Notes: generated by a model from the letters alone, not told the origin. Counted from the stretch's first letter, positions 456 to 20,970 are shown. The stretch: DNA of 64,000 nt from a bacterium (GCA_049700315.1 JBNAVN010000005.1:4305-68304), one strand, 5' to 3'. Numbers and translations: made by a program.

Positions 456-1172
456 GTGCTCCTGAAAGAAAAGCAGGCTTCTTTTGTTGACCATCTTGAA
501 GAATTAAGAAAAAGAATACTTGTTTCAATCGCATTTGTATTGATTTTCTCAGTGATTTGCTTTGCCTTTGCCCAACATATTTTGAATTTTATTATCAAAC
601 GGACCAATATCAGTACTGCTTACTTTTTCTCACCCACTGAAGCATTTTTGGTAAATATAAAGGTCGCCATTTTTGTAGGAATTTTTGTTTCTTTTCCGAT
701 AATTTTATATCAAATCTGGGCTTTTATTGGGCCGGGCCTGACAAAAAAAGAGCAGCGAGTTTCATTGCCATTTTTGTTTTCCGGGATAGTGCTATTTTTG
801 GTTGGTTGTTGTTTTGCATATTTCATACTGATCCCGGTTGGTTTGAAATTTTTCTTTTCTTTTGGTACCGAGAATATCAAGCCACTGATGAATATAAACA
901 AGGTCCTTGAATTTATTTTCTGGTGTATCCTCGGCAGCGGATTTCTTTTTCAATTGCCTTTGATAGTTTTCTTCTTAATAAAAATAGGTGTTGTGCAGGC
1001 TTCAACCCTGACTAAACACAGACCGGAATTTATTGTTGCCATTTTAATTATTTCCGCGGTAATCACACCAACCGGAGATATGTTTACACTCCTTTTGATA
1101 TCTGTTCCTTTGGTAGTATTGATTGAAATCAGCATTCTTTTGGCAAGAATAACAACACATAGGAAAGAGTAA
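456..1172 (+). CDS. tatC: Twin-arginine translocase subunit TatC
   Basis: HLEELRKRI, SPTEAF, YQIWAFIGPGL, FQLP and AVITPTGD motifs; about 6 hydrophobic segments. Confidence 0.95.
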   Translation: MLLKEKQASFVDHLEELRKRILVSIAFVLIFSVICFAFAQHILNFIIKRTNISTAYFFSPTEAFLVNIKVAIFVGIFVSFPIILYQIWAFIGPGLTKKEQRVSLPFLFSGIVLFLVGCCFAYFILIPVGLKFFFSFGTENIKPLMNINKVLEFIFWCILGSGFLFQLPLIVFFLIKIGVVQASTLTKHRPEFIVAILIISAVITPTGDMFTLLLISVPLVVLIEISILLARITTHRKE

Positions 1173-1252
1173 ATACCTCATCGGGGATTTTACTTCATCC
1201 AGAGTGCAAGAGTTCTGTTCTGATGAAGGTCGGTGTTGTTGTTACGATTATT

Positions 1253-1279
1253 GTCGCGGTTAGGAAACCGCTCCCACAG
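1253..1279 (-). repeat. REP-like palindrome, class 1 (GTRG-GA-stem), copy 1
   Basis: Minus strand reads CTGTGGGAGCGGTTTCCTAACCGCGAC: GTGG tetranucleotide followed by a GCGGTT/AACCGC stem. Confidence 0.7.
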
Positions 1280-1375
1280 AATTATCGTGGAAGGTGAAAC
1301 GTGTAACGCGAAACGGATAAAACAAAAAACTACGATTAACGAAACTGTAGAACAAAACGGGCTGCAAAACCGTAT
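1280..1375 (+). repeat. 96-bp direct repeat, left copy
   Basis: Manual ungapped alignment to 10341-10436 gives 88/96 identical positions. Confidence 0.9.
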
Positions 1376-1421
1376 AACGACGAACCATTTTTTAACGGCA
1401 ATAAATTGTCTACTCCATTAA

Positions 1422-1510
1422 TAACCATCCAACCATAAAACCATCCAACTATCCAACCATCAAACCAGGCTATAAGACAATACGACAATAAGACTATCAG
1501 ACGATAAGAC
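1422..1510. repeat. Two adjacent degenerate 8-bp-period tandem arrays
   Basis: TAACCATC CAACCATA AAACCATC CAACTATC CAACCATC AAACCAGG, then TATAAGAC AATACGAC AATAAGAC TATCAGAC GATAAGAC. Confidence 0.8.
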
Positions 1511-3716
1511 TACCCAACAATGTCTCTACTTCTTCAGAATCCGGGATTACCCTCAATACCTTTTCTAAGACCTTTTTTGCATCGTGCTTATTGCGATGTT
1601 CTAAACAACTCTTGGCGAAATTTATTGATTCATTCTCAAACTCGGTCAAAATCTTGAATCTCATATTCACCGACCAATCATCAAAGTTCTTCTTAAATGG
1701 CTCACCACGAAATAGATTGATTGCCTCTGTGAACTTTTTCATCGCGAGTTCATATTCGTTTGCTAAAATCAATGCCCTTGCCTGGGCAGTTAATTCATTA
1801 AACTTTGCCCAATCAGTGATAAACCGGAATTTGAGTTCAATATCACCACCCTTGATTATCAACGCATATTTGGGTAAATTTAAAGCCTTTCTGATTTTAG
1901 ATATTGTTTGATAAAGATAATGTTTTGCATTCTTTTTATTTGGCCAGAAATTACTGTTTATTTCATCAATACTCAAATTCCATTTTTCCTTCAGACATAA
2001 ATAAATGAAAAGTGCTTCTTCTTTAGGTCTCAGTCCAAGCGATTTTAAAGGAATATTGTTTTTTAATACCTTTAATGGCCCTAAAAAAGAAATCTCATAA
2101 TAGGGGATGGATTCATTAAAAATGGGAAGGGGAAAATATCGGTGCGGAAACTCTAATTTCTTTCCTTTTTTGAGATAAATATTTATCAAATCAGAAAAGA
2201 ATAAGGAATAGAGTAAGAAGTTACCCCATATTCTATTTTTTATAGCAAATTCTGTTGCTCTTTTTAATAAATAATATTTTTTCTCCTGATAAGCCCTACA
2301 TAAGAGCAAAAGAAGTCTGAGTGGCGGTGTTAGGAAAGGCGTAGAAGAATAGAAATTCTTTTCCATCAAACTGTTGAAAGTTAAAACCTGCATTGCCATT
2401 TTATGTTTTTTAAATAGAGATAAATAATCGCTTATTGATAGTTTGACTTCTTCTTCCTGACGCAAGGCATATTTTGCTCCAAAGATAATGAGTAAACAAC
2501 GGGATAGGTAATTAAGAATATTTTCTCTCTTTGCCAATTTTAAACCCTGGCTTGCATACTCAATTGCCATTTCAGGGTTGCCACTTGTCAGTTCCTTTTG
2601 AGCCATTATCAGATACTTCCTTGACTCATAACCCCACACATGTCTCGTCCTTTCGTTCATTCTTAGTGCCTCAGCAAATTCTCCATTTGCCAGTTTACTG
2701 GCCATGGTTGCCATGTAAAAACTACCGAGCTGTGTGTGTTCTTCTGACTTTTGCATAATATTTAGCCATTTTTCAGCATCTAATATAAATCCAGAAGAGG
2801 TCCCAAATGCTGCCATATCTGCCAGTAGGGCAAGGGGTTTCTTTGTAAAATTTTTCAGAATGGCTTTGCATATACTTATTGCATTTTTCGCTTCTTCAAA
2901 TTTTAAAAGTGATACACAAAATAAAGCTTTGCACAAGAAAAATACAAAGCAAAGGCCTTTGTCCTGGAGTCCCAAATAAAATCTTTCTGTATTTTTAACC
3001 TTCTGATATCCTTCATTAAAGCGTCCCATCCAGTGGAGAATAAAAATTTCAGCGTAATTTGCCCTTAAAAAGGAGTAGATCAATTTCTTTTTTAAAAATT
3101 TTAGTTTTAAATATCTGGCATCGCAGAGGAGTTCGTCAAGCGGTTTCTTTCCGAAGTTCAAATACAACTGCGCAAGGCGATGGTGAAGGGGAAGGATTTT
3201 GGGGTCTAACTGGAGCAAGAAATCCTCATCACTAAGCACCGGAAGGCTGGCAAGCAAGCATTGAATATTCCGTGAGGATAGAATGTGCTTCTGTCCTTTT
3301 AGAAATTCTGTTGCCCATTCTGAATATTTTGGAATATAAACAGATTTAATATACATATTTGAAATATATTTTTTGTTAAATCCCGCATAACCCCAGACAC
3401 GCCAGGCATTCCATATCTTTTTTGAAGACAGATAAATTCCTTCCTTTTTTAACACATCTTTTGTTTCTTTCACTGTGAGATTAGGATTTTCTTCCTTTAT
3501 TTTCACTAATATCTTTAATATTTTTGGAGAAATCCCCATATCTTTGTAAAATCTCTTTTTTAAATCTTCATAAGGATTTTTTATTTCATTCAGCCACCGC
3601 TGGATGGTGGTGAAATGGATTGATTTTTCTCTGGCGATTTTGCGCAGAGAAGTCTTGCCATTTAAATATTCCTGGATACATTTATACTTAAAGAGTGGGT
3701 CATATCTTGTATGCAT
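1497..3716 (-). CDS. Large transcriptional regulator: N-terminal transposase-like tandem HTH, TPR-like helical middle, C-terminal SARP-type winged helix + BTAD
   Basis: N-term YLNGKTSLRKIAREKSIHFTTIQRW and KEENPNLT..LKKEGIYLS. C-term EISFLGPLKV..LFIYLCL..SIDEINSNFWP..LYQTISKIRKAL..TDWAKF..AINLFRGEPF..DDW. Confidence 0.75.
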   Translation of the reverse strand: MHTRYDPLFKYKCIQEYLNGKTSLRKIAREKSIHFTTIQRWLNEIKNPYEDLKKRFYKDMGISPKILKILVKIKEENPNLTVKETKDVLKKEGIYLSSKKIWNAWRVWGYAGFNKKYISNMYIKSVYIPKYSEWATEFLKGQKHILSSRNIQCLLASLPVLSDEDFLLQLDPKILPLHHRLAQLYLNFGKKPLDELLCDARYLKLKFLKKKLIYSFLRANYAEIFILHWMGRFNEGYQKVKNTERFYLGLQDKGLCFVFFLCKALFCVSLLKFEEAKNAISICKAILKNFTKKPLALLADMAAFGTSSGFILDAEKWLNIMQKSEEHTQLGSFYMATMASKLANGEFAEALRMNERTRHVWGYESRKYLIMAQKELTSGNPEMAIEYASQGLKLAKRENILNYLSRCLLIIFGAKYALRQEEEVKLSISDYLSLFKKHKMAMQVLTFNSLMEKNFYSSTPFLTPPLRLLLLLCRAYQEKKYYLLKRATEFAIKNRIWGNFLLYSLFFSDLINIYLKKGKKLEFPHRYFPLPIFNESIPYYEISFLGPLKVLKNNIPLKSLGLRPKEEALFIYLCLKEKWNLSIDEINSNFWPNKKNAKHYLYQTISKIRKALNLPKYALIIKGGDIELKFRFITDWAKFNELTAQARALILANEYELAMKKFTEAINLFRGEPFKKNFDDWSVNMRFKILTEFENESINFAKSCLEHRNKHDAKKVLEKVLRVIPDSEEVETLLGSLIV

Positions 3717-3725
3717 AGTTTGAAA

Positions 3726-3753
3726 ATTTTATCTAATTCAGAGCAAAAGTCAA
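3726..3753 (-). promoter_or_regulatory. sigma70-like promoter of the regulator gene
   Basis: TTGACT-16 bp-TAAAAT, ending 9 nt before the ATG at 3716. Confidence 0.65.
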
Positions 3754-3836
3754 GTTCTATCTTGAAAACTGCCCAAAACCCAATGAAATTTAATGAATTT
3801 TAAGCGACATAGGTCCTATATTTTTCTCATATTTTT

Positions 3837-3845
3837 TGATATAAT
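3837..3845 (+). promoter_or_regulatory. Extended -10 promoter (no -35) for the secreted-protein cluster
   Basis: TGATATAAT, no TTGAC at the -35 position; GGAGG RBS before ATG 3866. Confidence 0.45.
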
Positions 3846-3865
3846 TATATCTGAAGGGAGGATTT

Positions 3866-6391
3866 ATGAGACGTGCACTTATCATTGGTTCAATGCTGGT
3901 AAATATCCTATTTTGCCAGCAGGGATGGGTCTCATTACAGGGACCAGAAGGCGGGGCAATGCGGTATATGCTCTGGTTACCGCCTGACTACAACAATATA
4001 ATCGGATGTGCCTCAAATGGAGAATGGTTTCAATTAGAACATTCTGAAGGGTTATACTATTCCCGAAATTGTGGAAATAGATGGTATCTCTGTGAAAATG
4101 GGATTGACTGGTCTAAAGGAGGAATTCAACAGATAGATTACAACTATCTCAATCCTGATATTATTTATGCAGCACAAGGAGATTTACACACCGGTGCAGC
4201 CTATAAAACTACAGATGGCGGATTGACTTGGGTAAATATTGCACCTATTGAGGCGGACTTTAGAGCGATATACTGCTCCCGTAAAGACCCCAATGTTCTT
4301 TTAATTGGTTCAAGATGGCCGGGTATTGGGATATTTAGGAGCACTGATGGAGGAAATAGTTGGACGAATGTTAACTCAAGCATTAGATGTTATGAATTTG
4401 CTTATGACCCGAAATGTCCAGATACTGTCTATGTGGGTGGGCCGAGTAGCTATATATGGCGGTCAGTAGATGGAGGACAAACCTGGTCTCAGATAACGAA
4501 TCTTCCTATTTCAGATATTGTGTCAGTGGCAGTTGACCCCCAGAACGGCAACATAATATATTGTATTCCTGATAATGGTACAGACCATTATGGTGTTTAT
4601 CGTAGTTCAAATTTTGGCGCGACCTGGCAACAGGTACTTGCTCCTCCTGCTTCGTATGTGTTGTTTGTTCAAGTAAGGATCTCTCCGGTAAATCCGAATA
4701 TTGTCTGGGCGGTTGGTTTGAGCGGTTTATATAGAAGCACTAACCGGGGGCTAAATTTTACACGAATTGCGACCTTCCCAGGAACAGGGTGGGGGATATT
4801 ACCACATCCTGCAAAGGATAGCACTGTAATTATCTCATCGGGTAATAAATTATGGCTTACAACTGACCTTGGAAACACCTGGCATGACAAGAATTTCCGG
4901 CTCCATGCCTTGTGGGCATACCCAAAACCCTTTAATACGAATCTGATTTATGCCCTTGCATATGGTGCATATTATTCAGCATTAGTTAAAACCACCAACA
5001 GAGGCAAAACCTGGACTACATTATTAGAGAAATATTGTAATCTCCCGTACAATCCAGGAACGATCTATAGTTGTTCTGATGTCCACCCTGTTGATTCAAA
5101 TTGCGTAATTGTTGGGAGTAGGGCCGGTGTTCTTAGAACTACTGATGGTGGAGTTACTTGGAATTCACCAGCGGGTCTTACTAAAATGTGTGATGTCCAT
5201 TTTTCTCATGCCAATTACAATCATGTCTGGGCTGCTGCAATAGATTCAGGTATTTACAAATCAATGAATAAGGGAAGTGTATTTGTGCGCACAAATGCGC
5301 CCTACGGCGCGGATAAACCCTATGTATCACTTGCACTCCATCCTGCTGATAGTAATATCGCCCTTGCCGGGACAGCGAAGGCTAGTCAGTACGTGAATGC
5401 TATGATGATTCGTACCTCAGACGGTGGCACAACCTGGCAAATAGTGTTCAACGCACCACCCTCTTTCTATAATTTTCAGGATATTGAATTCTCTCCATCA
5501 TCGCCAACAATTGCTTATTTTTGTGAGACCAGGAATGTATATAAGAGCACAGATGAAGGATTAACATGGAGTCTTGCTGGCTCTGTCCCTGATTATATAT
5601 ATGACCTTGAAATTGACCCGAGCAATCCGAATATATTATACGCGGGAACGAAGGAATCAGGAATCTTCCAGAGCACCGATCAGGGTGCTTCTTGGACTTC
5701 ATTTAATTTTAATTTACCCAACAATGAAGTTGTATTTGGAATCAAAATTCTTCAAGCAGGAGCCACTTCCTATATTTACTGCGGAGATACACGAGGAGTT
5801 CATGTATTAGGATCTCTTGATACATTAAAACCCTCTGTCTCCGTTATCCAGCCCAATGGGGGTGAAGTCCTGTGGAGTGGTCAGAGCTACAATATTCTCT
5901 GGAGTGCCAGTGATAATTTAAATGTTGATGGGATAGATATCTTTTACTCCACTGATGCTGGCAGTACTTATCAAGGTGTCTCATACAATGAATTGAATGA
6001 CGGTGTTTACTCCTGGACTGTGCCCAATACTCCATCAAATCAGTGTTATGTCAGGATTGATGCCTATGATTTTGCTGGAAATATGGCAACCGACCGTAGC
6101 AACAATTACTTTACCATTGGCCAGGTTGGTATTAACGAATTGAAGGGCAAGAATTTAGTCTTGAATTTAAAGGGCACAATCAATCCGATTCTGATTTTAC
6201 ACTCAGAAAATCCAATGGATATAGCCCTTGCCCTTTATGATTGCACCGGTGCCCGAGTTTATAGCCTAACTGAATCCAACTTCTGTGGAAAGAAAGAGAT
6301 AAAATTTAATAGCCTTCCTGGTGGAGTCTATTTTTATGTGCTGACTGAAAATGGTGTTTCTCATCAGGGGAAGATTGTAGTAATAAGATAG
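3866..6391 (+). CDS. Secreted BNR/Asp-box (VPS10/sialidase-like) beta-propeller protein with an Ig-like domain and a T9SS type A-like C-terminal domain
   Basis: Signal peptide; many S/TxDGGxTW Asp-box motifs; QPNGGEV..YNILW..YSWTVP Ig-like module; C-term LYDCTGARV..LPGGVYFYVL..GKIVVIR. Confidence 0.8.
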   Translation: MRRALIIGSMLVNILFCQQGWVSLQGPEGGAMRYMLWLPPDYNNIIGCASNGEWFQLEHSEGLYYSRNCGNRWYLCENGIDWSKGGIQQIDYNYLNPDIIYAAQGDLHTGAAYKTTDGGLTWVNIAPIEADFRAIYCSRKDPNVLLIGSRWPGIGIFRSTDGGNSWTNVNSSIRCYEFAYDPKCPDTVYVGGPSSYIWRSVDGGQTWSQITNLPISDIVSVAVDPQNGNIIYCIPDNGTDHYGVYRSSNFGATWQQVLAPPASYVLFVQVRISPVNPNIVWAVGLSGLYRSTNRGLNFTRIATFPGTGWGILPHPAKDSTVIISSGNKLWLTTDLGNTWHDKNFRLHALWAYPKPFNTNLIYALAYGAYYSALVKTTNRGKTWTTLLEKYCNLPYNPGTIYSCSDVHPVDSNCVIVGSRAGVLRTTDGGVTWNSPAGLTKMCDVHFSHANYNHVWAAAIDSGIYKSMNKGSVFVRTNAPYGADKPYVSLALHPADSNIALAGTAKASQYVNAMMIRTSDGGTTWQIVFNAPPSFYNFQDIEFSPSSPTIAYFCETRNVYKSTDEGLTWSLAGSVPDYIYDLEIDPSNPNILYAGTKESGIFQSTDQGASWTSFNFNLPNNEVVFGIKILQAGATSYIYCGDTRGVHVLGSLDTLKPSVSVIQPNGGEVLWSGQSYNILWSASDNLNVDGIDIFYSTDAGSTYQGVSYNELNDGVYSWTVPNTPSNQCYVRIDAYDFAGNMATDRSNNYFTIGQVGINELKGKNLVLNLKGTINPILILHSENPMDIALALYDCTGARVYSLTESNFCGKKEIKFNSLPGGVYFYVLTENGVSHQGKIVVIR

Positions 6392-6453
6392 AGCGTATCA
6401 ACCCTCTCCCCGATAACGTGTTATCTTGGGGAGAGGAAAGGATAGGAGGTTAT

Positions 6454-8643
6454 GTGGTCATAATATTTATTGCTCTGGTTTCTTTTCAGGGCTTTGATTC
6501 ACTGAATGTTAAGTTCCTTGGCAACTGGCCATTTGGAGATGCATGGGCAGTTGCGATTGATTCTGCAAGGAATTTGACATATCTTGGTTCAGGAGGCGGG
6601 ATTTATATTCTTGATGTCTCAGACCTCTCAAATCCAACAAAGACTTCAGAAAGGATTCATACCCGGGGAATTGTCCGGGGAGTATTTTATGAACCAGAAA
6701 CCAATATCCTGTATGCAGGTTATGATAAGAGAATTTCGTGTAGTGGCGGAGGTGCGGATGATACTATTTCCGGCATTGAACTATGGAATATTCAAGACCC
6801 GCTAAATCCTACAAAATTGAGTTCCTGCTTTATATCCGGGAATGTTTATGCAATTTCTGTGGCAAATATCCCCGCGCGCGGCAAATTTGCATTTGTTGCC
6901 TCTGGAAAGAATGGGTTGCGAATAATTGATGTTACCAATCCACTTTCACCAATAGAAGTTGGATATTTTGATACACATGGAGCACTGGATGTTTTCGTTT
7001 CAGACAGCACTGCTTATCTGGCTGATGCGGACTCGGGTTTAAGGATTATAGATATCTCTATTCCTCAAAACCCGGTAGAAATCGGACGATATCAGACCGC
7101 AAGTGCTGCGTATGGTGTTTATGTGGCGGGTATTTACGCTTATGTCGCCGCATCCACATCAGGGCTGCGAATAATCAAAGTTTCCCAACCTAATCATCCG
7201 ATAGAAGTCGGCTATTATGATACACCGGGTTATGCAGTTCGGGTAAGTGTTGCTGACAACATTGCCTGCGTTGCAGATGAAATTGCTGGATTACGGATAG
7301 TAGATATTTCAGCACCATTCAATCCTGTTGAAGTTGGTTATTATGTTACCCCTGATACTGTGCCGGGAATGGCAGAGGGAGTAACTATTTTTAATTCCCG
7401 TAGTTGTGCAATGGTTGCCTTTGCCAGAGCAGGATTGCGGATAATAGATATCTCAAGCCCTAACCGATATGGCGAAGAACTTGGGCACTTTCTAACCCCA
7501 TCACCTACATCCCAGATTCATGTTGCGAACAATTTTGCATATTTGGCAACAGGTAATTCCGGGTTAAAAATAATTGATGTTTCAGACCCATTTAATCCTT
7601 TTGAAGTTGGTTCTTGTAATACCCCAAATTATGCGCTTGATGTCTTTGTTGCAAATGGATTTGCTTATATTGCGGACAATGCCTCGGGTCTCAGAATAAT
7701 TGACATTACAGATCCCTATAATCCAATTGAAGTTGGTTACTATGATACACCAAATTGGACTACAGGGGTCTTTGTAAAAGATACCTTTGCCTACCTTGCA
7801 GATGGAAATGGAGGTGGCTTGAGGATAATCAATATTTCAGACCCCCATAATCCTTATGAGATTGGAAATTGTCCAACCCACTCCTGTGCAGGGGCTGTAT
7901 TTGTTTTAGATACTCTTGCCTATATTGCAGATGGGTCTGCTGGATTGACGATAATAGATATTTCAAATCCCGGTTCCCCACTTGAGATTAGCAACTGTCC
8001 TATAATGGGTTGGACGAATGATGTGGCGGTTTCAGGAGATCATGCCTATGTTGGAGTAATGGATTTTGCCCCTGGTTTCAGGATAGTTGATGTTTCTGAT
8101 CCAACAAATCCTCACGAGGTTGGTTCCTATCCGACCACCGGTTTCACCTATGGTGTCGCAATTTCCAATCGCATCGCCTATGTTGCGGATGGGTATTTTG
8201 GACTCAGGCTGATAGATATTACCAACCCATTGAATCCATATGAAATCGGGTATTATGGGACATCGGCTTGTGCAGTGGGGATCTTTGTGAACGAGTCTTC
8301 TTCAGTCTACTATCTCGCTGACCTTGATGATGGATTGCAAATTTATGGTCCCTTATCTTATATCAAAGAGAATAAAGAAAAGATTTTAAGAAGAACCCCT
8401 CTCTCAATTTCTACTATCTTCAGAAAGAATATCAGGATAAGACTTGGAAAATCAGTCTCTTCTCCGGTGAAGGTTAATCTTTATAATATCTGTGGGCAGT
8501 GCGTATTTGAAAAAAATTATTCTATCCAGGGTTCAGAGATAATAATTAACGAGACAGATATCTCAAACCTCGGTTCGGGCATTTATTTTGTTAGATTGAG
8601 TACAGTGCTACAAAATACAATAAAGATTATAAAAATAAAATAA
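6454..8643 (+). CDS. Secreted LVIVD-repeat protein with a T9SS type A-like C-terminal domain
   Basis: About 12 repeats of AYxADxxxGLRIIDISxPxNPxEVGYYDT; C-term LYNICGQCV..LGSGIYFVRL..KIIKIK. Start set at the GTG after GGAGG (ORF track starts at 6418). Confidence 0.85.
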   Translation: MVIIFIALVSFQGFDSLNVKFLGNWPFGDAWAVAIDSARNLTYLGSGGGIYILDVSDLSNPTKTSERIHTRGIVRGVFYEPETNILYAGYDKRISCSGGGADDTISGIELWNIQDPLNPTKLSSCFISGNVYAISVANIPARGKFAFVASGKNGLRIIDVTNPLSPIEVGYFDTHGALDVFVSDSTAYLADADSGLRIIDISIPQNPVEIGRYQTASAAYGVYVAGIYAYVAASTSGLRIIKVSQPNHPIEVGYYDTPGYAVRVSVADNIACVADEIAGLRIVDISAPFNPVEVGYYVTPDTVPGMAEGVTIFNSRSCAMVAFARAGLRIIDISSPNRYGEELGHFLTPSPTSQIHVANNFAYLATGNSGLKIIDVSDPFNPFEVGSCNTPNYALDVFVANGFAYIADNASGLRIIDITDPYNPIEVGYYDTPNWTTGVFVKDTFAYLADGNGGGLRIINISDPHNPYEIGNCPTHSCAGAVFVLDTLAYIADGSAGLTIIDISNPGSPLEISNCPIMGWTNDVAVSGDHAYVGVMDFAPGFRIVDVSDPTNPHEVGSYPTTGFTYGVAISNRIAYVADGYFGLRLIDITNPLNPYEIGYYGTSACAVGIFVNESSSVYYLADLDDGLQIYGPLSYIKENKEKILRRTPLSISTIFRKNIRIRLGKSVSSPVKVNLYNICGQCVFEKNYSIQGSEIIINETDISNLGSGIYFVRLSTVLQNTIKIIKIK

Positions 8644-8659
8644 CTAAAAAGGGGTTATA

Positions 8660-10099
8660 ATGATTGAATTATTAATAAATTTTGTAGTATTGTTCGCATA
8701 CACGCAGTTTCCTCCTGATACCATGTGGACACGAACATATGGAGGAGAATATAGTGATGGTGCATATCAGGTGCAGCCAACTATAGACAGTGGATTTATT
8801 GTTACCGGCTGGACATCCCTCACGCCTTTTGATAGAGATGTTTATTTGATAAAGACGGATGACGAAGGTATACTCCAGTGGATAAGGACAATTGGTGGAG
8901 GTGGTCATGATATTGGACGGTCAGTTGCGCAGACTTCAGATAAGGGTTATGTCATAGCTGGGGAGACCAGTTCTTACGGGGCAGGGTCTTTTGATGTCTA
9001 TCTGATAAAGTTTGATTCTGCTGGAAATCTATTATGGGAAAAGACTTTTGGCAGGAGTTTTCAGGATGGTGCCCGATCAATCCAGGAACTTCCCGATGGT
9101 GGTTTCATAATTGCTGGACTTACTGATTCTTTAGGATTTGGTGCCTTCAAAGTATATTTGTTAAAAACAGATGCACAGGGAGAAATAATATGGGAGAAGA
9201 CCTATGGTGGTCAGGGCGCGTGCTGGGCCGAGGAGGTACGGCAGACCAATGATGGAGGTTATATAATCATTGGCAGGAACTACTCAAGTGGTAGCGGTGA
9301 TATCTATCTGGTGAAGTGTGATTTCAATGGTGATACATTGTGGACAAAGATTTTTGGGAACAATGGTGAAGATTATGGATTTTCAGTTAGACAGACTCCA
9401 GACAATGGGTATATAATTTGCGGTTGCACATCATCATTGGGTGCTGGTGGTTATGATATTTACTTGATTAAAACCGATTCGGCAGGCGTAAGAATTTGGG
9501 AAAAGACATTTGGTGGAGCAAATGATGATTATGGATATTCAGTAGCACTTGCTAATGATGGTTTTCTTGTTTCTGGTGCAAGTAACTCCTTGGGGCAGGG
9601 TGCATTTGATATATATCTCATTAAAACGGATAATTCTGGCAATACTTTATGGTATAAAACAATTGGTGGAATTGAGGACGAAATATCTTATTCAGCTCAG
9701 CATACCTTGGATGATGGGTGGATTATTGCTGGAACTACCCGTTCTTTTGGGTCAGGAACCCCAGGGCAACCCAATCTCTATCTCGTAAAACTTGGTTCAG
9801 AGGTTGTAGTTACAGAAGTAAAACGAGAAGAAAAAGGAGTTCTTTTATCCCTTTCACCAACATTATTTAGGGATAAACTTACACTAAAATTAACAACAAC
9901 CTTGAGAAGTCCATTACAGATAGTTCTCTATGATGCTGTTGGTAATAAGGTTTATGAGAAATACAATAATCCGGCCCCCACAATTGAATTGACGGGAAGA
10001 GGAATATCTTTACTTAAAAGTGGGATTTATTTCCTGAGTGTTTATTCAAATGGTAAAAAAATAGGAATGTTTAAGGTAATTCATCTTTCTGCTAAATAA
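8660..10099 (+). CDS. Secreted beta-propeller protein (WxKTYGG repeats) with a T9SS type A-like C-terminal domain
   Basis: Repeated WEKTFGG..D.GYSV.QT.DGGYII.G..DIYLIKTD; C-term LYDAVGNKV..LKSGIYFL. Confidence 0.85.
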   Translation: MIELLINFVVLFAYTQFPPDTMWTRTYGGEYSDGAYQVQPTIDSGFIVTGWTSLTPFDRDVYLIKTDDEGILQWIRTIGGGGHDIGRSVAQTSDKGYVIAGETSSYGAGSFDVYLIKFDSAGNLLWEKTFGRSFQDGARSIQELPDGGFIIAGLTDSLGFGAFKVYLLKTDAQGEIIWEKTYGGQGACWAEEVRQTNDGGYIIIGRNYSSGSGDIYLVKCDFNGDTLWTKIFGNNGEDYGFSVRQTPDNGYIICGCTSSLGAGGYDIYLIKTDSAGVRIWEKTFGGANDDYGYSVALANDGFLVSGASNSLGQGAFDIYLIKTDNSGNTLWYKTIGGIEDEISYSAQHTLDDGWIIAGTTRSFGSGTPGQPNLYLVKLGSEVVVTEVKREEKGVLLSLSPTLFRDKLTLKLTTTLRSPLQIVLYDAVGNKVYEKYNNPAPTIELTGRGISLLKSGIYFLSVYSNGKKIGMFKVIHLSAK

Positions 10100-10274
10100 A
10101 TCTCTCATGGTTCAGCGAAGATATGATATCTTGGCTGGCGATACATAGTCAATAGCGCTATGCAACCTTCAAGTGCTCGGCATTACAAGAGAGTAAATAT
10201 AAGTTTTTAATCTGATGATTTTTTGAAGTAGTATAATCATAAAATTGCTGGGTGAACGCGGACACTTGATTTTT

Positions 10275-10301
10275 GTCGCGATTGGAAAATCGCTCCTACA
10301 G
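10275..10301 (-). repeat. REP-like palindrome, class 1, copy 2
   Basis: Minus strand CTGTAGGAGCGATTTTCCAATCGCGAC: GTAG followed by a GCGATT/AATCGC stem. Confidence 0.7.
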
Positions 10302-10340
10302 GTATGGTTATTGGGCATGAGATTAAAATCCCTACTCCTT

Positions 10341-10436
10341 AATTATTGTGAAAGGTGAAACGTGTAACGTGAAACGGATAAAACAAAAAACTACGATTAA
10401 CGAAACTGTAAAACGATATGGGCTGCGAAACCGTAT
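10341..10436 (+). repeat. 96-bp direct repeat, right copy
   Basis: 88/96 identical to 1280-1375. Confidence 0.9.
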
Positions 10437-10534
10437 GACCCTTAACGATATTCGGGGCGGGATACACTTTTTGATAATCAATCCTGCCGAATGAACTTAT
10501 CCATTAAAATTTTGAATTGAAATTTAAATATAAA

Positions 10535-10606
10535 AGGCGGCAGCCGGATTTGCACCGGCGAATAGCGGTTTTGCAGACCGCCGCCTTGCTACTTGGCTAT
10601 GCCGCC
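10535..10606 (-). tRNA. tRNA-Cys(GCA)
   Basis: Cloverleaf with acceptor stem GGCGGCA/TGCCGCC, anticodon arm GCGGT-CTGCAAA-ACCGC and U73 discriminator; CCA not encoded. Confidence 0.95.
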
Positions 10607-10618
10607 TTAGATATGTTT

Positions 10619-10657: not shown

Positions 10658-10685
10658 TTGACATTTTTTAAAAAATAACTATAAT
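10658..10685 (+). promoter_or_regulatory. Promoter of the murA operon (likely leaderless)
   Basis: TTGACA-16-TATAAT, 6 nt before the ATG; no SD. Confidence 0.8.
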
Positions 10686-10691
10686 CCATTT

Positions 10692-11954
10692 ATGGATAGA
10701 TTTGTTATAGAGGGTGGTAAAAGACTTTCTGGCGTTGTTGAAATTTCAGGTGCAAAGAATTCAGCATTACCGATCATCGCTGCATCAATACTTACTGACA
10801 AACGAGTAATCATTGAGAATGTTCCGGATGTAGTAGATGTCCATACAATGATTGAACTTATCAGGCATCTTGGTTCATCTGTTAGTTTTAAGAAAAATAT
10901 CCTTGAGATTTATACTCCGAAGATTAGAAATATTGTAGCACCATATAATATTGTCAGGAAAATGAGGGCCTCCTATTATGCACTTGGCGCGCTCATTGCT
11001 CGTGAAAAGAAGGCAAAGGTTTCTTTGCCTGGTGGTTGTGCGATAGGTCCAAGACCTGTTGATCTGCATATCAAGGGATTAAAGGCACTTAATTGCAACA
11101 TTACAATTGACCACGGTTATATACACGCCAATTGTAAGAAACTGAAAGGTAATGAAGTCAATCTTCAGGGTGCAAAAGGAACTTCGGTCGGTGCAACAAT
11201 CAATGTGATGCTTGCAGCTACTGGTGGACAGGGCACAACCATTATAAATTCTGCTGCCTGTGAACCCGAAGTTGTGGATGTAGCGAATTTTTTGAAGAAA
11301 TTGGGTGTCAATATTAAGGGTGCAGGAACAAATCAGATAACAATAAGGGGCAACTGGTGCCCGTTTGAAGGGCATTACAGAATCATTCCCGACCGAATTG
11401 AGACCGGGACATTTGTCGTAGCATCAGCAATTACTGCAGGGAATGTTACAATCAGGAATTGTCAGCCTGAACACCTTACTGCAGTGATTGATAAGATTAA
11501 AGAAGTTGGCGCAGATGTTCAATTAAGGAATAATGAGATTGTAGTAAAAGGGAGAAAGCGGATTCTGCCAACAGATATCTTTGTTGCTCCATATCCGGGT
11601 TTTCCCACAGATATGCAGGCACAATTTATGGCATTGCTATCCATGTGCAAAGGGACAAGTACGATAAAGGAGACAATTTTTGAAAATAGGTTTATGCAGG
11701 CAGTGGAATTGAGTAGAATGGGCGCGAATATTACCCTTGAGGGTGACACTGCAGTGATCAAAGGTGTCAAGGAATTGACCGGGACTTATGTAATGGCTTC
11801 GGATTTAAGGGCTTCGGCATGTCTGGTTCTTGCTGGCTTGGCAGCCAAGGGGAAGACTTATGTTCGTCGTATATATCACCTTGATAGGGGATATGAACAA
11901 TTTGAGAGAAAATTGAGACAACTCGGTGCGCGTATAAAAAGAGAGAAAGAATGA
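10692..11954 (+). CDS. murA: UDP-N-acetylglucosamine 1-carboxyvinyltransferase
   Basis: SGAKNSALP, LPGGCAIGPRPVDLH (catalytic Cys), PGFPTDMQAQ, DLRASA. Confidence 0.97.
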   Translation: MDRFVIEGGKRLSGVVEISGAKNSALPIIAASILTDKRVIIENVPDVVDVHTMIELIRHLGSSVSFKKNILEIYTPKIRNIVAPYNIVRKMRASYYALGALIAREKKAKVSLPGGCAIGPRPVDLHIKGLKALNCNITIDHGYIHANCKKLKGNEVNLQGAKGTSVGATINVMLAATGGQGTTIINSAACEPEVVDVANFLKKLGVNIKGAGTNQITIRGNWCPFEGHYRIIPDRIETGTFVVASAITAGNVTIRNCQPEHLTAVIDKIKEVGADVQLRNNEIVVKGRKRILPTDIFVAPYPGFPTDMQAQFMALLSMCKGTSTIKETIFENRFMQAVELSRMGANITLEGDTAVIKGVKELTGTYVMASDLRASACLVLAGLAAKGKTYVRRIYHLDRGYEQFERKLRQLGARIKREKE

Positions 11955-13006
11955 GAAAGATAAAAAGGGTTGTTAGAATCGGTAACATAAAGATTGGAGG
12001 CAAGAATCCAATTGTTGTCCAATCAATGACCAAGACCAGGACTTCAGATATCAAAAGGTCCGTTAATCAAATCAAAAGAATGGAGAAAAAGGGTTGCGAA
12101 CTGGTGCGCCTTGCAGTAGTTAACAAGAGTGATGCAAATGCATTAAAGGAAATAAAAAAACAGATTGCTATTCCAATGGTTGCTGATATTCACTTTGATT
12201 ACCGACTTGCACTAATGGCAATAGATGCAGGAGTAGATAAACTCCGCATCAATCCTGGCAACATAGGTGATGAATGGAAGGTGAGTGAAATAATCAAAAA
12301 GGCATCAGATTATAAAATCCCGATTCGTATTGGCATAAATACCGGTTCTCTGCCCAAAAAAATACTGTCAAAATACAAACACCCCACTTCAGACGCAGTA
12401 ATTGAAACCCTTAATTCCAGTCTTGAGATCTTTTATAAAAACAACTTTTCGGATATTGTTATTTCAGCAAAATCTCCTGATGTCTGTGAAACAATTGAGG
12501 TATATGAGGCGATTCATAAGAAATTTGATTACCCTCTACATCTTGGAATAACAGAATCAGGACTTGTTTTTTCTGGTGGGATCAGAAGTGCAATTGGAAT
12601 TGGTATTCTTCTGCATCAGGGTATTGGAGATACCATTCGTGTATCACTTGCTGGTGAACCAGAAAAAGAAGTTGTGGCAGGCTATGAGATTTTGAAGTCT
12701 CTGCATTTGAGAGAATATGGCCCAAAATTGATTGTCTGTCCAACCTGTGGAAGATGTGAAGTCAATTTGTTGAAGATTGCGCGTCTTGTAGAAAAACGAT
12801 TGGACCATAAGAAATATCCTCTGACCATAGCAGTAATGGGTTGTGTGGTGAATGGACCTGGTGAGGCAAAGGAGGCAGATTTTGGCATTGCCTGTGGCAA
12901 GAGAGTTGGTGCGATTTTTGCCCGGGGCAGAGAAATAAAAAGAGTAGCAGAAAAAAAACTCGTTGAAGAACTGTTTGAGGTGATAAATGAGAACATTAAT
13001 CATTGA
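11951..13006 (+). CDS. ispG: 4-hydroxy-3-methylbut-2-en-1-yl diphosphate synthase
   Basis: VQSMT, VADIHF, RINPGN, GDTIRVSL, CPTCGRC, MGCVVNGPGE. Confidence 0.97.
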   Translation: MRKIKRVVRIGNIKIGGKNPIVVQSMTKTRTSDIKRSVNQIKRMEKKGCELVRLAVVNKSDANALKEIKKQIAIPMVADIHFDYRLALMAIDAGVDKLRINPGNIGDEWKVSEIIKKASDYKIPIRIGINTGSLPKKILSKYKHPTSDAVIETLNSSLEIFYKNNFSDIVISAKSPDVCETIEVYEAIHKKFDYPLHLGITESGLVFSGGIRSAIGIGILLHQGIGDTIRVSLAGEPEKEVVAGYEILKSLHLREYGPKLIVCPTCGRCEVNLLKIARLVEKRLDHKKYPLTIAVMGCVVNGPGEAKEADFGIACGKRVGAIFARGREIKRVAEKKLVEELFEVINENINH

Positions 13007-13592
13007 TTGTTATCTACCAAATTCACCCCAGATAGAACATCTTTACAAAGTAATCAGTGATGTTACTACAGATATTGTTGAAATAAAAGACTCTTCAACT
13101 ATCGGGGTTCAGGAAGATGTGAGACTATATAATGCTATTATCATATCCGGTTCACAAAGGAAACTTGCGGAGATTGGTACATTTGAACTTTATTCCAATC
13201 TTGCTGAATTGATAAAACACTGCGAAAAACCAATATTGGGCATTTGTTTCGGACATCAGTTGATTTCAATGGCATTCTATGAAGATGTTGTTTCAATGGG
13301 AAACAGGATAGAAGGCTATTATATGGTTAAAAAGGTAAATCATGATGATCTTTTTGATGGATTGGCTGAAAAATTTCTCGTAATGGAATCACACGAAGAA
13401 ATGGTGGTCAATGTACCTTATGAATTCATAAAACTTGCCGAATCTCCAAATTGTCCGATTGAGGCGATAAAACACAGGATTCTGCCGATCTATGGGGTGC
13501 AATTTCATCCTGAAAGATTTGACGACAAACATCCGGCAGGTGTTATAATTCTTGAAAATTTCTTCAGGATCGCAAGTTTTTATATAAAATAG
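12987..13592 (+). CDS. Class I glutamine amidotransferase (GMP synthase subunit A-like)
   Basis: PILGICFGHQL nucleophile elbow and GVQFHPE (His-Glu). Confidence 0.88.
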   Translation: MRTLIIDCYLPNSPQIEHLYKVISDVTTDIVEIKDSSTIGVQEDVRLYNAIIISGSQRKLAEIGTFELYSNLAELIKHCEKPILGICFGHQLISMAFYEDVVSMGNRIEGYYMVKKVNHDDLFDGLAEKFLVMESHEEMVVNVPYEFIKLAESPNCPIEAIKHRILPIYGVQFHPERFDDKHPAGVIILENFFRIASFYIK

Positions 13593-15757: not shown

Positions 15758-17482
15758 TTACTCTTCAATTCTTAGATGTAGTTCTTTCAATTGCTCTGGC
15801 TCAACAACATCAGGAATATTTTCAAGTAAGCCCTGTGCCTGGGTTGTCTTGGGAAATGCTATGACGTCCCTGATTGATTTTACACCGGTAAGGAGCATTA
15901 CTATTCTTTCAATGCCCGGAGCAATACCACCATGGGGTGGTGCACCATAATCAAGTGCCTCAAGTAAAAGTCCAAATTTTTTTCCTGCAGTCTCCTTATC
16001 CACCCCTAATATTTCAAATATCTTTTCCTGCAGTTGTCGGTTATTATTTCTGATACTGCCTGAGGCAAGTTCATTGCCATTCAGCACAAGGTCATACTGT
16101 CTGCCCCTTACTTTTAGCGGGTCTGAATCAAGATATTCCAGATCTTCTGGTTTTGGCTGGGTAAATGGGTGATGGCAGGGACTAAATCTGCCTGTTTTTT
16201 CATCTATTTCAAACAGGGGAAAATCATAGACCCATAGAAAATGGAAATTCGTGCCTCGCAAATTGAGCTCATCAGCAATGCGGTTCCTCAATGAACCAAG
16301 AAAAGAGAGTATTTTTCTGTCTCCTGCAGCTGTTATCAATAGGGCACCATCTTTGAGTCCAATCTGGTTTGTGATCTCTTCATTGAGATATTTAGCAATG
16401 CTTCCGCTCAGGTTTGCCTCTTTCCTTACCCAGTATATTCCGCCTAATCCTGCATTTTTTGCGTCTTCATTATACTCATCAAGCAATTTTCGTGAAATTG
16501 CCTTCCCATTTGGGACTATTATTCCGCTTATCTTTTCTTTATCAAAAAACGGGGGAAACTGCAATTTGCTAAAATTTTGCTTTAAGTCAATAATTTCCAA
16601 ACCAAAACTCATATCCGGCTTGTCTGTGCCATATTTGTTCATTACCTGTTCAAATGTAAATCTTGGAAAAGGTATTTTTAGTTCCTTGTTGAGCACTTTT
16701 TTGAAAATATACTTAAACATTCCTTCAATCAATTGATAAATGTCTTCTTCATTTACAAATGACATCTCAAGGTCTAACTGTGTGAATTCTGGCTGTCTAT
16801 CATGTCTTGGGTCTTCGTCCCGCATACATCTTGCGATCTGATAGTATCTTTCAAATCCTGCAACCATAAGAAGTTGCTTGTACATCTGAGGAGATTGCGC
16901 AAGTGCATAAAACTTGCCAGGATACAATCGTGAAGGAACAAGATAATCCCTTGCACCCTCAGGCATACTCCTGGTAAGAATTGGTGTTTCAATTTCAATA
17001 AAACCGTTGGTGTTGAGATATTCACGGATTGCAGTTACTATGTAATGTCTGAAAATAATTATTTTTTGCATTGAGAGTCGTCTTAGATCAAGATAGCGAT
17101 ATTTCAAACGCAATTCTTCACTTGCCTTGAGTTCTTCTTCAACAACAAATGGTGGTGTCTTTGACCGGGCAAGCACAGTTAACTGTCTGACATCAAGTTC
17201 AATCTCACCTGCTGGAACATCTTTGTTTTTTTGATTTTCAGGTCGTTCACGAACAAATCCATTCACCATTATGCAATCCTGAAGATTTAATTTGTTTGCC
17301 TCAGGAATCTTTTTTGGGTCTAATACAAGCTGTAGTATTCCGGTGCGGTCTTTGAGGTCAATAAAGACAAGGCCACCCAGATTTCTAATCTTGAATACCC
17401 AACCGGCAATCTGAAGTTCCTTGCTTGCATAGGATTTATCAATCTGGGCATTGAAAATCTGTTTAATTGGACCCCCTGACAC
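15758..17482 (-). CDS. aspS: Aspartate--tRNA ligase
   Basis: PEGARDYLVPSR, QSPQMYKQLLM, RDED..RQPEFTQ, PPHGGIAPGIER. Confidence 0.96.
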   Translation of the reverse strand: MSGGPIKQIFNAQIDKSYASKELQIAGWVFKIRNLGGLVFIDLKDRTGILQLVLDPKKIPEANKLNLQDCIMVNGFVRERPENQKNKDVPAGEIELDVRQLTVLARSKTPPFVVEEELKASEELRLKYRYLDLRRLSMQKIIIFRHYIVTAIREYLNTNGFIEIETPILTRSMPEGARDYLVPSRLYPGKFYALAQSPQMYKQLLMVAGFERYYQIARCMRDEDPRHDRQPEFTQLDLEMSFVNEEDIYQLIEGMFKYIFKKVLNKELKIPFPRFTFEQVMNKYGTDKPDMSFGLEIIDLKQNFSKLQFPPFFDKEKISGIIVPNGKAISRKLLDEYNEDAKNAGLGGIYWVRKEANLSGSIAKYLNEEITNQIGLKDGALLITAAGDRKILSFLGSLRNRIADELNLRGTNFHFLWVYDFPLFEIDEKTGRFSPCHHPFTQPKPEDLEYLDSDPLKVRGRQYDLVLNGNELASGSIRNNNRQLQEKIFEILGVDKETAGKKFGLLLEALDYGAPPHGGIAPGIERIVMLLTGVKSIRDVIAFPKTTQAQGLLENIPDVVEPEQLKELHLRIEE

Positions 17483-17499: not shown

Positions 17500-19569
17500 T
17501 TATTGTTTTTCATTGTCTGTTTCTTTTTCACCTTCTATAACAATTTTTGACAAATTGGCAAATTTCAAAAACAACTGATGAATATAATTAACAAGTGAAA
17601 GACGATTTTTCTGTAGTTTTTTGTCATCACACATTACCAGAACTTCATCAAAAAATTTATCAATGTCTTTGCGTAGTCCTAACAAGAGTTTCATTATTTC
17701 CGTATATTTCTTCTCCGGAAACAAAGGTTCCATTCTTTCTTCGGTCTCTTTACCTCTCTGATAAAGATTCTTTTCTGCAGGCTCCCTGAACAGGGAGATA
17801 TCAATTGAATTGTGGTTTTCAATATTTCTCAGAATATTACGCACTCTTTCCTGACCAATAACCAACTGCAAGAATTCCTGTTTGTCTCTGAAAGCTTTTA
17901 ATGCTTCGCACCGGAGTTTTGCATCATAAATATTGAAATCCGTATTATGGGTAACTGCATTGACTTCATCGTATCGGTATCCAGAGTCAACAAGATATCG
18001 GGCAAATCTTTCTTTGAGAAAATCTTTGATCGGATTTTCACTTATATTGCTCTTGTAAAGTTTAATATGATTCTGGATGATGGGTAACAGTGCAATATCA
18101 AAATTCTGGGCATCTGCAATATTGAAGAGGGCATAGGCATTTCTTCTTACGCCAAAAGGATCATATGAACCGCTTGGTTTTTGTCCGGAAATAAATGCAC
18201 CGAGTATGTTATCTATCTTATCAACCATTGAAAGCACTGCACCTTCTCTGGTTTGTGGTTGGCTGTCTCCGCTGAACCCTGGAAGATAGTGTTCTTTTAT
18301 TGCGATTGCTACTCTTTCATCTTCACCTGCTGATTTTGCATAATAATATCCCATTATGCCCTGCAGCGAGGTGAATTCCTTTTCCCTTATCATATTGGAA
18401 AGCAAATCTGCCTTGCACAGCGCAGCTGACCTTTTCAAAATTTCAATATCTATGTCTTTCACGCCTTCAAAATTTTTCATAGATTTGACCAGTCGCATTG
18501 ACTTATCATAGACTGTGCCCAGCCCTTCTAACCAGACCATATCTTTAGTCGCTTCCTGCATTTTTGCAATGCCCATTTTCAAATCGTTCTGATAATAAAA
18601 CAGCGCATCCTGTAACCGGGCTTTCAAAACCCGTGCATACCCAGCGGCCACATTTTCTGCAGCCTTTCTTCTACCATTGAAAACACCGATAAATCTGTTT
18701 GTTCCTTTAACCCAGACAAGATTACCCAGCGACTTTAATGTAGTCTTTAATATCTCTTCGGGGAGTTTCAAAAATTCTGAATCAAATTCTGCACTTGCAA
18801 CATCAGGATATTCTATTGTGGAGTTTATTTCTTCAAGCATATTATCATCATATACAGGTTCACCCTTGAGTTCTCTTGCTGCTTCATTGATACGGTTTTT
18901 TATTATCTTTCTACGTTCATTAGGATCAACCACCACTCCACCATGTCTTAAATGGTTCATATATTCCCTTGGTTTTTCCATGCGAATTGGCTCAAAAGAA
19001 AAATGGAAATTGGGCATACTATATCTTTCTGCCTCAAGCCCGGCATATTTGAATCTCAAGGGTTTTCTATCAAGCAATCCCACAATCCATCTAATTGGTC
19101 TTGGAAATCTTATCTTTTCTTCATTCCAGATCATTGTTTTGGGAAATTCCAGACTGGCAATTATCTTGGGAATTTCATAATAAAGAATGTCTTCGGTGTC
19201 CTTGGCAGGGACCTGTTTTACAGCACTGATATACTCACCTTTCTGGGTTTTGACAGTTTTTACCTCACTCAATTTCAAATTATGGGCATTTAAGAATCCT
19301 TCAAGCATCTTGGTTGGTTTCCCATTTTCATCATAAGCAAATTTCTTTGGCGGACCCTGGACTTCTACTGCCTGAGCTTTTTGTTTACGAGCGACCCCCA
19401 AGACCAATACGCCAATTCTTCGGCTCGTATATATCTTTCTTATGGTTCTATAAAATATCCGTTCTCTTCTAAACAGTGCTTCAACCATTTCAGTCAAATC
19501 GGTTGCAGCCTTCACAAGAAAACCAGGCGGAAACTCTTCAAATCCTATTTCTAACAAAAAATCAATCAT
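17500..19569 (-). CDS. glyS: Glycine--tRNA ligase beta subunit
   Basis: [39 protein letters not shown]. Confidence 0.95.
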
Positions 19570-20428: not shown

Positions 20429-20970
20429 AGACCCAGGTCATTACTAATGCCTGTCATGCCCTTGAGGCAGAGTTCAATGAATTTTTCAAGTTCCAGTCCG
20501 AGGTTTTTACAGGCAAGAATCTGCTCCCGATTTGCGCCTGCAGCAAACCTTTTTTCCTTAAATCTTCTGAGGACAAAATCTGTATCAAGGGATGAGAGTT
20601 TTTTGTCTGGATGCATCAGTGCGGATGCGACAATCAATCCGGTCAAGGGGTCAGTTGCGAACAACGCCCAATCCAGTCGTGATTTCGGCGTAAAGTGCCC
20701 AGCATGCACTTTAATCGCATAGACAATCTCTGGTGCTATTCCCTGTTTTTCAAGCAATTCGCCCCCGATAATGCCGTGGTGCGCAGGGTCATTGAGTGTT
20801 TCTTCGTAGTCAATATCATGCAATAGTCCAGCCAAACCCCAGGTTTCCTCGTCCTCCCCAAAATGATGGGCAAGTTCTCGCAAACAGGCTTCAGCAGCCA
20901 GGCAGTGCTTTACTAAGTTCTTATTCTTTAGTTTTCCAGATATTAAGTTCAGGGCATCAGTCCTATTCAT
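20425..20970 (-). CDS. HDIG/HD-domain metal-dependent phosphohydrolase
   Basis: [20 protein letters not shown] motifs. Start set at the ATG downstream of the promoter. Confidence 0.88.

Follow-up and report, generated by a model that had tools for sequence, protein, structure and literature searches.

What placed a regulator gene and three genes for secreted proteins, bracketed by a directly repeated 96-mer and by hairpins of the repetitive extragenic palindromic (REP) type, between tatC and the 3′ side of a tRNA-Cys gene in the bacterial DNA analyzed here? The stretch in question (GCA_049700315.1, JBNAVN010000005.1:4305-68304; hereafter the window) is a single strand of 64 kb, and all coordinates are counted from its start. 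A first-pass annotation of the sequence proposed a non-autonomous cassette moved in trans, or gained and lost by recombination, through its border repeats. We favor, at a probability of roughly 55%, a different reading: the block would be a lineage-specific islet, a single clade-native module of a regulator and cargo proteins of the type IX secretion system (T9SS) lodged in a tRNA-adjacent hot spot, and each of its REP-rich borders would have gained one ∼115-nt mosaic element of a kind scattered through the clade. The two 96-mers would then be closely related copies of that one element, arriving separately at REP clusters or by local conversion, and the module itself would have arrived by ordinary recombination and not through the border repeats, which are probably decoration rather than the machinery that moved the block.

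An insertion between tatC and tRNA-Cys

By its MurA, for which the best public relatives are 90% identical, the host, an uncultured bacterium, is placed in candidate division WOR-3. The genes of the locus are as follows, where CTD stands for the T9SS C-terminal sorting domain.

456-1172, plus strand: tatC, conserved left neighbor (Pfam TatC, E = 5e-64)
1173-10509, no strand assigned: inserted islet, ∼9.3 kb absent between tatC and tRNA-Cys in relatives, with both repeat copies inside
1497-3716, minus strand: regulator of 739 aa, with an N-terminal transposase-type helix-turn-helix (HTH), a TPR-like middle, and a C-terminal winged helix plus BTAD (SARP-like)
3866-6391, plus strand: BNR/sortilin beta-propeller protein with CTD
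6418-8643, plus strand: LVIVD-repeat protein with CTD (LVIVD, E = 1e-98)
8660-10099, plus strand: 479-aa protein with CTD (Por_Secre_tail at 22 bits, under the cutoff; confirmed by a local jackhmmer search)
10534-10607, minus strand: intact tRNA-Cys(GCA), separated from the right 96-mer by 97 nt
10692-11954, plus strand: murA, conserved right neighbor

In the relatives examined, tatC lies directly upstream of the tRNA-Cys/murA region. Seven related lineages (L081; L088; L082-84; L085-87; L089/90; L091/92; L174), with MurA 84-90% identical to that of the window, keep tatC, tRNA-Cys, and murA together without the block, in the conserved order yjeF, unknown gene, tatC, tRNA-Cys (minus strand), murA, gcpE, GATase, M24. 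Because the block is missing from all seven, the ∼9.3 kb at 1173-10509 is an insertion in the lineage of the window. Homology to the empty sites restarts at 10510-10532, just 3′ of the tRNA. The spacer between tatC and tRNA-Cys measures 80-130 bp in five lineages with an empty site, and neither a REP nor a 96-mer was found in the relatives' empty spacers, contrary to the first-pass expectation of an empty site carrying one repeat copy.

Other lineages carry other DNA at the same place: a small open reading frame (ORF) between tatC and the tRNA in L085-87, and a 651-aa HEAT-repeat gene plus REPs between tRNA-Cys and murA in L174. These different inserts lead us to regard the tatC/tRNA-Cys/murA spacer, on comparative grounds, as an insertion hot spot. 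In L174, tRNA-Cys (7469-7542) starts 3 nt after tatC, REP hairpins lie within 7560-7680, and a run of N occupies 7747-7845. The GC content of the islet (33-44%) resembles that of its surroundings, and a foreign origin was rejected on this native-like composition.

The first-pass description of the enclosed unit as one HTH/TPR/BTAD regulator and three CTD-bearing secreted proteins, lying between tatC and the 3′ side of tRNA-Cys, is accurate, and a domain scan of the window proteins gave no integrase or transposase domain inside the block. The regulator is transcribed divergently from the three CTD-protein genes. Its TPR_14 and BTAD scores are barely over threshold, its Trans_reg_C and transposase-type HTH scores are weak, and it had no match among PDB sequences. 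Por_Secre_tail is the domain common to the three secreted proteins of the block; the N-terminal part of the 479-aa protein has no domain assignment.

Orthologous modules occupy different loci with different flanks. In L171 (GCA_965649095.1), a regulator 64.5% identical to that of the window is accompanied by an extra beta-propeller CTD gene, a BNR gene (68%), and two LVIVD-like genes (49%, the value for the window LVIVD gene, and 38%). L173 (GCA_965648915.1) has only the regulator (60.7%) and BNR (48%) genes, between an M28 peptidase gene and lplA, and in L172 (GCA_039802265.1) a gene of the beta-lactamase family neighbors a BNR gene (66%) and an LVIVD-like one. More distant, paralogous units, ∼30% identical, are found in L085/86, L152 (two units), L160, and L118. 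From these comparisons, a regulator divergent from CTD-protein genes is a recurrent module native to the WOR-3 clade, and since the locus of the regulator and BNR module differs from one genome to another, the module has relocated in the course of evolution. To this extent the idea of a mobile cassette holds, the block being inserted and the module relocating between genomes; transposition through the repeats is the part that finds no support. The contig of L173 also carries genes for a Cas3-like helicase and DevR (Cas7) at 18712-22517, ∼6 kb downstream of the module, and an XerC/D-like recombinase gene at 16307-17173.

A further CTD gene lies elsewhere in the window, on the minus strand at 21067-22503: an ORF of 478 aa (local jackhmmer E = 5e-19, no Pfam match) between an HD-domain gene and rnpA/yidD/yidC. 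Judged by L085 and L174, which have no gene there, it represents a second lineage-specific CTD-gene insertion.

Border repeats and their dispersal

The repeats at the islet borders, and the REP copies found elsewhere in the window, are these.

1253-1279, minus strand: REP1 (plus-strand sequence GTCGCGGTTAGGAAACCGCTCCCACAG; minus-strand CTGTGGGAGCGGTTTCCTAACCGCGAC, with a GTGG head and 6-bp hairpin)
1280-1375, plus strand: left 96-mer, with a family-conserved tail to ∼1393, ACG/AAC heptad module at 1293-1316, and core motif at 1358-1379
1397-1413, minus strand: decayed REP-A, a GTAG hairpin after the left 96-mer (25 of 33 columns matching the intact REP-A of L171)
1419-1467, plus strand: ∼6 tandem 8-nt units (CATCCAAC), directly downstream of the regulator gene
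10275-10301, minus strand: REP2 (plus-strand sequence GTCGCGATTGGAAAATCGCTCCTACAG; minus-strand CTGTAGGAGCGATTTTCCAATCGCGAC, with a GTAG head)
10319-10335, minus strand: REP-A′ (minus-strand GTAGGGATTTTAATCTC), a GTAG-headed member of a second REP family, directly preceding the right 96-mer
10341-10436, plus strand: right 96-mer, with tail to ∼10455, heptad module at 10354-10377, and core motif at 10419-10440
40960-41017, plus strand: a tandem pair of GTAG hairpins from yet another REP family (GTAGTGCCTGATTTATCAGGCA and GTAGTTGCCCAATTTATTGGGCA)
41735-41760, plus strand: REP3, a third copy of the REP1/2 family in opposite orientation, with a GTGT head and without a 96-mer

The two 96-mers match at 88 of 96 positions in direct orientation and without gaps (blastn E = 9e-31), reproducing the original observation, and form the sole such pair in the window. 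A 59-nt stretch (1291-1349) contains only one mismatch, and weaker similarity extends to ∼117 nt (97/117). Both copies are built of ACG/AAC heptads followed by a core, CGGGCWGCGAAACCGT...ACGATTTTT, the whole element measuring ∼115 nt.

The hairpins at 1253-1279 and 10275-10301 had been called REP-like and alike in orientation, and we agree. REP1 and REP2 are identical at 22 of 27 positions, with one compensatory change from G:C to A:T in the stem; the unit of 27 nt, with its 6-bp stem and 4-nt loop, is an imperfect palindrome of the GTAG type. Heads of the form GT(A/G)G are present as GTGG in REP1 and as GTAG in REP2, REP-A, REP-A′, and the 40960/40995 hairpins. REP1 and REP2 are genuine REP-like elements with a GT(A/G)G head. 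In its 5.9 kb of intergenic DNA the window has seven hairpins of this kind, three from the REP1/2 family and four others with GTAG heads; none lies within a gene, and five are flanked by convergent gene ends. The hairpins at 40960-41017 stand between the convergent ppdK and LUD-domain genes, with REP3 700 bp away between divergent genes, and their (GCCTGAT-type) family recurs in L171 (9-30, at the contig end) and L174 (∼7580-7605).

Both convergent gene ends at the islet carry REP clusters, with at least two REP families, and REPs generally accumulate at convergent gene ends. As proposed for REPs in other bacteria, those here would probably act as transcribed 3′-end hairpins, either terminators or mRNA stabilizers, for the convergent transcripts; this role is suggested by a weak minus-strand hairpin with a T-run and by the REP literature (PMC3733652).

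The fine structure of the borders emerges from a three-way alignment of both window flanks with the orthologous left flank of L171. Common to all is a REP doublet, a member of the REP1/2 type followed by REP-A (GGGATTAAAATCCCTRCTCC). On the left, the 96-mer sits between REP1 and the decayed REP-A; on the right, it follows REP-A′, which is ∼94% identical to REP-A of L171 (blastn 17/18). The 5′ end of the 96-mer (AATTATYGTG) thereby abuts a REP head directly at both borders, with the doublet member differing by side. Since the 96-mers abut different REPs of the doublet, the pair of 96-mers does not represent opposite ends of a single composite repeat. The 39-nt insert that the first-pass annotation saw before the right copy is there (10302-10340, a spacer plus the second REP), but what it took for a sequence remnant is a second-family GTAG hairpin, and the two sides are not copies, one with an insert, of a single REP-plus-96-mer unit. 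This geometry does not fit a single such unit duplicated at integration, nor one crossover between copies; it fits separate arrivals at REP clusters by two members of one subfamily of the element, or else a local conversion. Neither terminal inverted repeats nor a target-site duplication, features of miniature inverted-repeat and composite transposons, were seen around either 96-mer or the block, and no integron attC was seen.

In L171, whose contig stops 235 nt past the regulator gene, the left flank has the REP doublet and (CATCCAAC)n downstream of that gene and no 96-mer; the 8-nt units and their variants are kept at 150-235, and L171 shares only the left REPs with the window islet. The module borders of L173 have no flanking repeats and no REP hairpins. 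Orthologous cassettes therefore lack the repeat arrangement on which the first-pass proposal was built, and the repeats are no necessary feature of such a cassette.

The 3′ part of the 96-mer matched intergenic DNA of the relatives L089 and L091/92, and a degenerate 22-nt core pattern derived from these and the window pair (four copies) was run on metagenomes. It gave 78 loci, ∼57 of which are on low-GC contigs (GC 0.36-0.46), all intergenic and with several per contig or dataset. The remaining 21 matches are in high-GC DNA and inside ORFs, a number near the ∼15 chance matches that we estimate from the information content of the pattern and the size of the collection. Bases beyond the searched pattern are conserved, with the consensus (GATA/TTGG/ATGG)CGGGCWGCGAAACCGT(ATAA/CCAA/ATGA)CGAWWRACGATTTTT, and a GTAG hairpin often follows the core element by 0-20 nt. 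The heptads (GTGAAACGTGTAACG...) occur at more than 10 core loci, usually 80-470 nt upstream of the core, and in six copies in L152. The REP1/2 family (GTAGGAGCGGTTTCYAACCGC) is found at 10 places in other low-GC, WOR-3-like metagenome contigs, 8 of these copies being 13-56 nt from a core motif. Both halves of the 96-mer and the REP are thus dispersed in intergenic DNA at sites unrelated to cassettes, which is half of what the first-pass annotation itself had named as counting against it. At the density found in relatives, ∼1 element per 30-45 kb, two copies in 64 kb correspond to the background rate. The core motif had no match in viral contigs, and an exact 24-mer of the 96-mer had none in GTDB genomes or JGI metagenomes, collections without the source genome.

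Two variants of the mosaic were seen. In one subfamily (L091/L092 5860-5960, L110, L116, L117/L154, L124), a conserved upstream module of ∼75 nt (GGATTTAAACTAACATCTCATTTCTAACTTCC...CCTTGATA) is 81-95% identical among members; its presence at apparently different loci and in different datasets is the clearest sign, from sequence comparison, that parts of the mosaic may spread as a unit. In L095, L097, L105, L126, L132, and L170, ∼75 nt before the core, the core halves appear reverse-complemented and in swapped order (GCTGCCCG-TTTCG-TTATACGG), an arrangement that matches neither an inverted repeat of simple form nor the partner strand of a nested hairpin. WOR-3 intergenic DNA is also dense in short tandem units, of 7-10 nt (L152 450-930) and 14 nt (L152 128-225).

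Might the element be kept at both borders by selection, as a terminator or insulator, an mRNA 3′-end element, or a putative binding array for the SARP-like regulator, so that its spread is not merely selfish or neutral? We consider this improbable, although its core and tail are strongly conserved across genomes and it points to the downstream gene at 23 of 32 unique loci. Adjacent CTD genes are, by our estimate, ∼2 times more frequent than expected from their share of genes, and the weak minus-strand hairpin with its T-run is found downstream of the regulator gene as well as of tRNA-Cys. A binding array would be in keeping with the heptad periodicity, and SARP-like regulators in other systems bind heptameric direct repeats. 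Against such a role, the gene contexts are mixed (co-directional, divergent, convergent, and operon-internal), the distance to the next gene varies from 8 to 690 nt, the divergent promoter region at 3717-3865 has no copy, and the element is missing from the orthologous modules of L171 and L173. Nor does it resemble an RNA element: the 96-mers had no Rfam match at gathering threshold or at E ≤ 10, single-sequence folding was no better than for shuffled sequences (z-scores −0.8 to +1.1), and a 55-member alignment held four invariant pairs, a 4-bp stem, with no covariation or compensatory change. On these three results we rejected a known or structured RNA. An encoded small protein was likewise rejected: both strands of both 96-mers are open, and the changed codons are 0 synonymous to 7 non-synonymous in the plus frame and 2 to 5 in the minus frame.

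The position of the block beside the 3′ side of tRNA-Cys, with direct repeats at both ends, recalls a classical tRNA-targeted island brought in by a tyrosine integrase, the repeats being attL and attR, and the left copy contains a 15-mer (GGGCTGCAAAACCGT) that agrees with the anticodon arm of tRNA-Cys at 13 of 15 positions. This explanation is effectively refuted. The family consensus has GCG, not GCA, at the anticodon spot, so that the resemblance is coincidental; the repeat is 97 nt from an intact tRNA and in the opposite orientation; the repeats are dispersed elements; and no integrase occurs among the window ORFs of at least 150 aa. A tRNA-derived att site was rejected on the wrong orientation and the consensus mismatch at the anticodon.

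Routes by which the module could have moved

Several observations weigh against the reading of an islet whose borders gained dispersed elements. The only two 115-nt copies in 64 kb sit at both ends of its only large insertion and in the same orientation; random placement among 22 intergenic gaps would give this in ∼1 of 231 pairs by our estimate, although restricting the landing sites to the four gaps that hold REPs raises the odds to ∼1 in 6. Over the 75 nt that precede the core, the window copies are 92% identical, compared with a median of 28% over 1953 family pairs, and no other pair on the same contig is alike, except in L152. There (contig Ga0207433_10011119), direct repeats at 243-978 and 12963-13471, 93-98% identical, 12.5 kb apart, and more than 700 nt long, bracket two regulator and CTD units and contain the 96-mer-type element. 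The closest relatives are different species, so that their empty sites say little on the state just before insertion. Finally, the searches for mobility genes cover the window and 590 kb of related contigs, and the rest of the genome lies outside them.

A rival reading has the repeats serve as recombination sites. The module would have been excised from another locus by homologous recombination between mosaic repeats on its two sides, the resulting circle then integrating at a resident repeat, or it would have been duplicated by unequal exchange; one repeat would remain at each end, as a scar of the event and as the substrate of a future deletion. We regard this as possible, at odds well below those of the preferred reading. 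The direct orientation, the 88/96 identity with its 59-nt stretch, and the location of both copies within the inserted DNA all suit it, as do the presence of modules at different loci and the same geometry, with longer repeats, in L152. Set against these, the empty sites of the closest relatives have no resident copy, a single crossover would not yield the side-dependent position of the 96-mer in the REP doublet, the modules of L171 and L173 are without the 96-mer, and the 8% divergence between copies argues against a recent event. The L152 repeats and the window pair nonetheless make recombination between such repeats a credible route to duplicate, move, or lose modules, and under any model the two window copies are a possible substrate for future deletion of the islet. 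The L152 repeats themselves comprise the 3′ end of a CTD-domain coding region and 550 nt of mosaic sequence in which heptads, 9-10-nt repeats, the core motif, and a GC-rich hairpin are combined.

Very little probability attaches to the alternative of a cargo transposon mobilized in trans, in which the same-orientation REPs are the left- and right-end hairpins of an IS200/IS605-type element and a Y1 transposase or REP-associated tyrosine transposase (RAYT) encoded elsewhere moves the 9-kb block in single-stranded form. In its favor, REP1 and REP2 put a GT(A/G)G hairpin of the same strand near each end and show a compensatory change in the stem, the module is found at different loci, and REPs of such form are associated with RAYTs in Proteobacteria (PMC2817692, PMC3733652). 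The gene itself, which the first-pass annotation suggested looking for elsewhere, did not appear: no Y1/RAYT or other mobility gene is among the window ORFs of at least 150 aa, and a rough RAYT probe (E. coli YafM-like) together with an HUH...Y regular expression found none in 1605 ORFs from 590 kb of related contigs, a weak negative. The orthologous module of L173 has borders without REPs, and REPs are also found at unrelated sites, singly or as tandem copies. If REP1 and REP2 were the ends, the element would include one 96-mer and exclude the other. RAYTs, moreover, are described with inverted REP flanks and are not known to carry cargo (PMC2817692). A variant in which the 115-nt heptad/core element is a REP-head-seeking passenger of a Y1/RAYT system that moves the whole module seems to us just as improbable. 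Were it true that a RAYT moves the module, this would be the first REP/RAYT system with multi-gene cargo, and in a candidate phylum, and would explain the differing loci of the orthologues; and if a RAYT is present in these genomes, the 115-nt element next to REP heads would be a good substrate for testing the spread of REP-linked sequences.

Elsewhere in the window, near-consensus promoters of the form TTGAC(A/T)-N16/17-TATAAT, with similar spacers, were seen at 10658-10695 (before murA), 59245-59282 (before tRNA-Phe), and 63915-63952 (at the window end); judging by these motifs, the host uses sigma-70-type promoters. An MCP-signalling domain and an SBP_bac_5 solute-binding domain share a mechanically called ORF of 1121 aa (60092-63457, plus strand), whose start lies 180 nt inside the EamA gene before it; the ORF could be a true fusion, two genes, or the product of a wrong start.

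Comparison with known systems

A close parallel is with the GTAG REP super-family cataloged by Di Nocera 2013 (PMC3733652). Together with PMC2817692, that catalog covers RAYT-bearing Proteobacteria and eight phyla, and the RAYT-associated REPs of Pseudomonas and Xanthomonas include TGTGGGAGCGGGTTtACCCGCGAA and GTAGGAGCGCACCtGGGCGCGAC (Nunvar 2010, PMC2817692 Table 1). The WOR-3 form, TGT(G/A)GGAGCG...CGCGA, closely parallels these. It is alike in its ∼27-nt unit, GT(A/G)G head, imperfect hairpin, and compensatory stem changes, and also in being extragenic, mostly between convergent or co-directional genes, with several families that are often clustered. Its host, however, belongs to candidate division WOR-3, its clusters are in direct rather than alternating orientation, and no cognate RAYT was seen in the window or the 590 kb.

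Bacterial interspersed mosaic elements (BIMEs) of enterobacteria combine REPs with short motifs in intergenic or intercistronic positions, are transcribed with their neighbors, and are modular and shuffled. The WOR-3 element is likewise a mosaic of REPs and short conserved motifs dispersed in gaps, but whereas BIMEs alternate inverted REPs with defined linkers, it has direct REPs (the window doublets are directly oriented), arrays of ACG/AAC heptads, and a 40-nt core. In heterocystous cyanobacteria, the short tandemly repeated repetitive (STRR) sequences are 7-nt tandem units that fill intergenic DNA and are conserved in the clade; we know of no function for them. The WOR-3 heptads are similarly 7-nt tandem units, but differ in sequence and phylum and are joined to a fixed core and REPs.

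IS200/IS605 elements and their non-autonomous derivatives, the palindrome-associated transposable elements (PATEs), which are moved by Y1 HUH enzymes, have same-strand subterminal hairpins, with no terminal inverted repeats and no target duplication. The islet resembles them in its same-strand hairpins near both ends and in lacking those two features, but its ends are undefined, no transposase was found in the window, and the hairpins do not recur in the orthologous L173 module. To our knowledge, no cargo of such size is known for REP/RAYT systems. The islet is also like tRNA-adjacent islets and hot spots elsewhere, as a lineage-specific block by a tRNA gene with varied inserts in the same spacer; it differs in having no integrase, no tRNA-derived att repeat, a native GC content, and cargo consisting of a clade-native paralogous module.

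The data give no evidence of gene cassettes being moved by REPs, and the novelty does not lie in a transposition mechanism. What is new is the presence in WOR-3 of at least four families of GTAG REPs and their link with a mosaic repeat, not described before, that combines ACG/AAC heptads with a 40-nt core. Modules of a regulator and T9SS cargo are, on this evidence, a mobile and fast-diversifying part of these genomes, one whose borders collect repeats.

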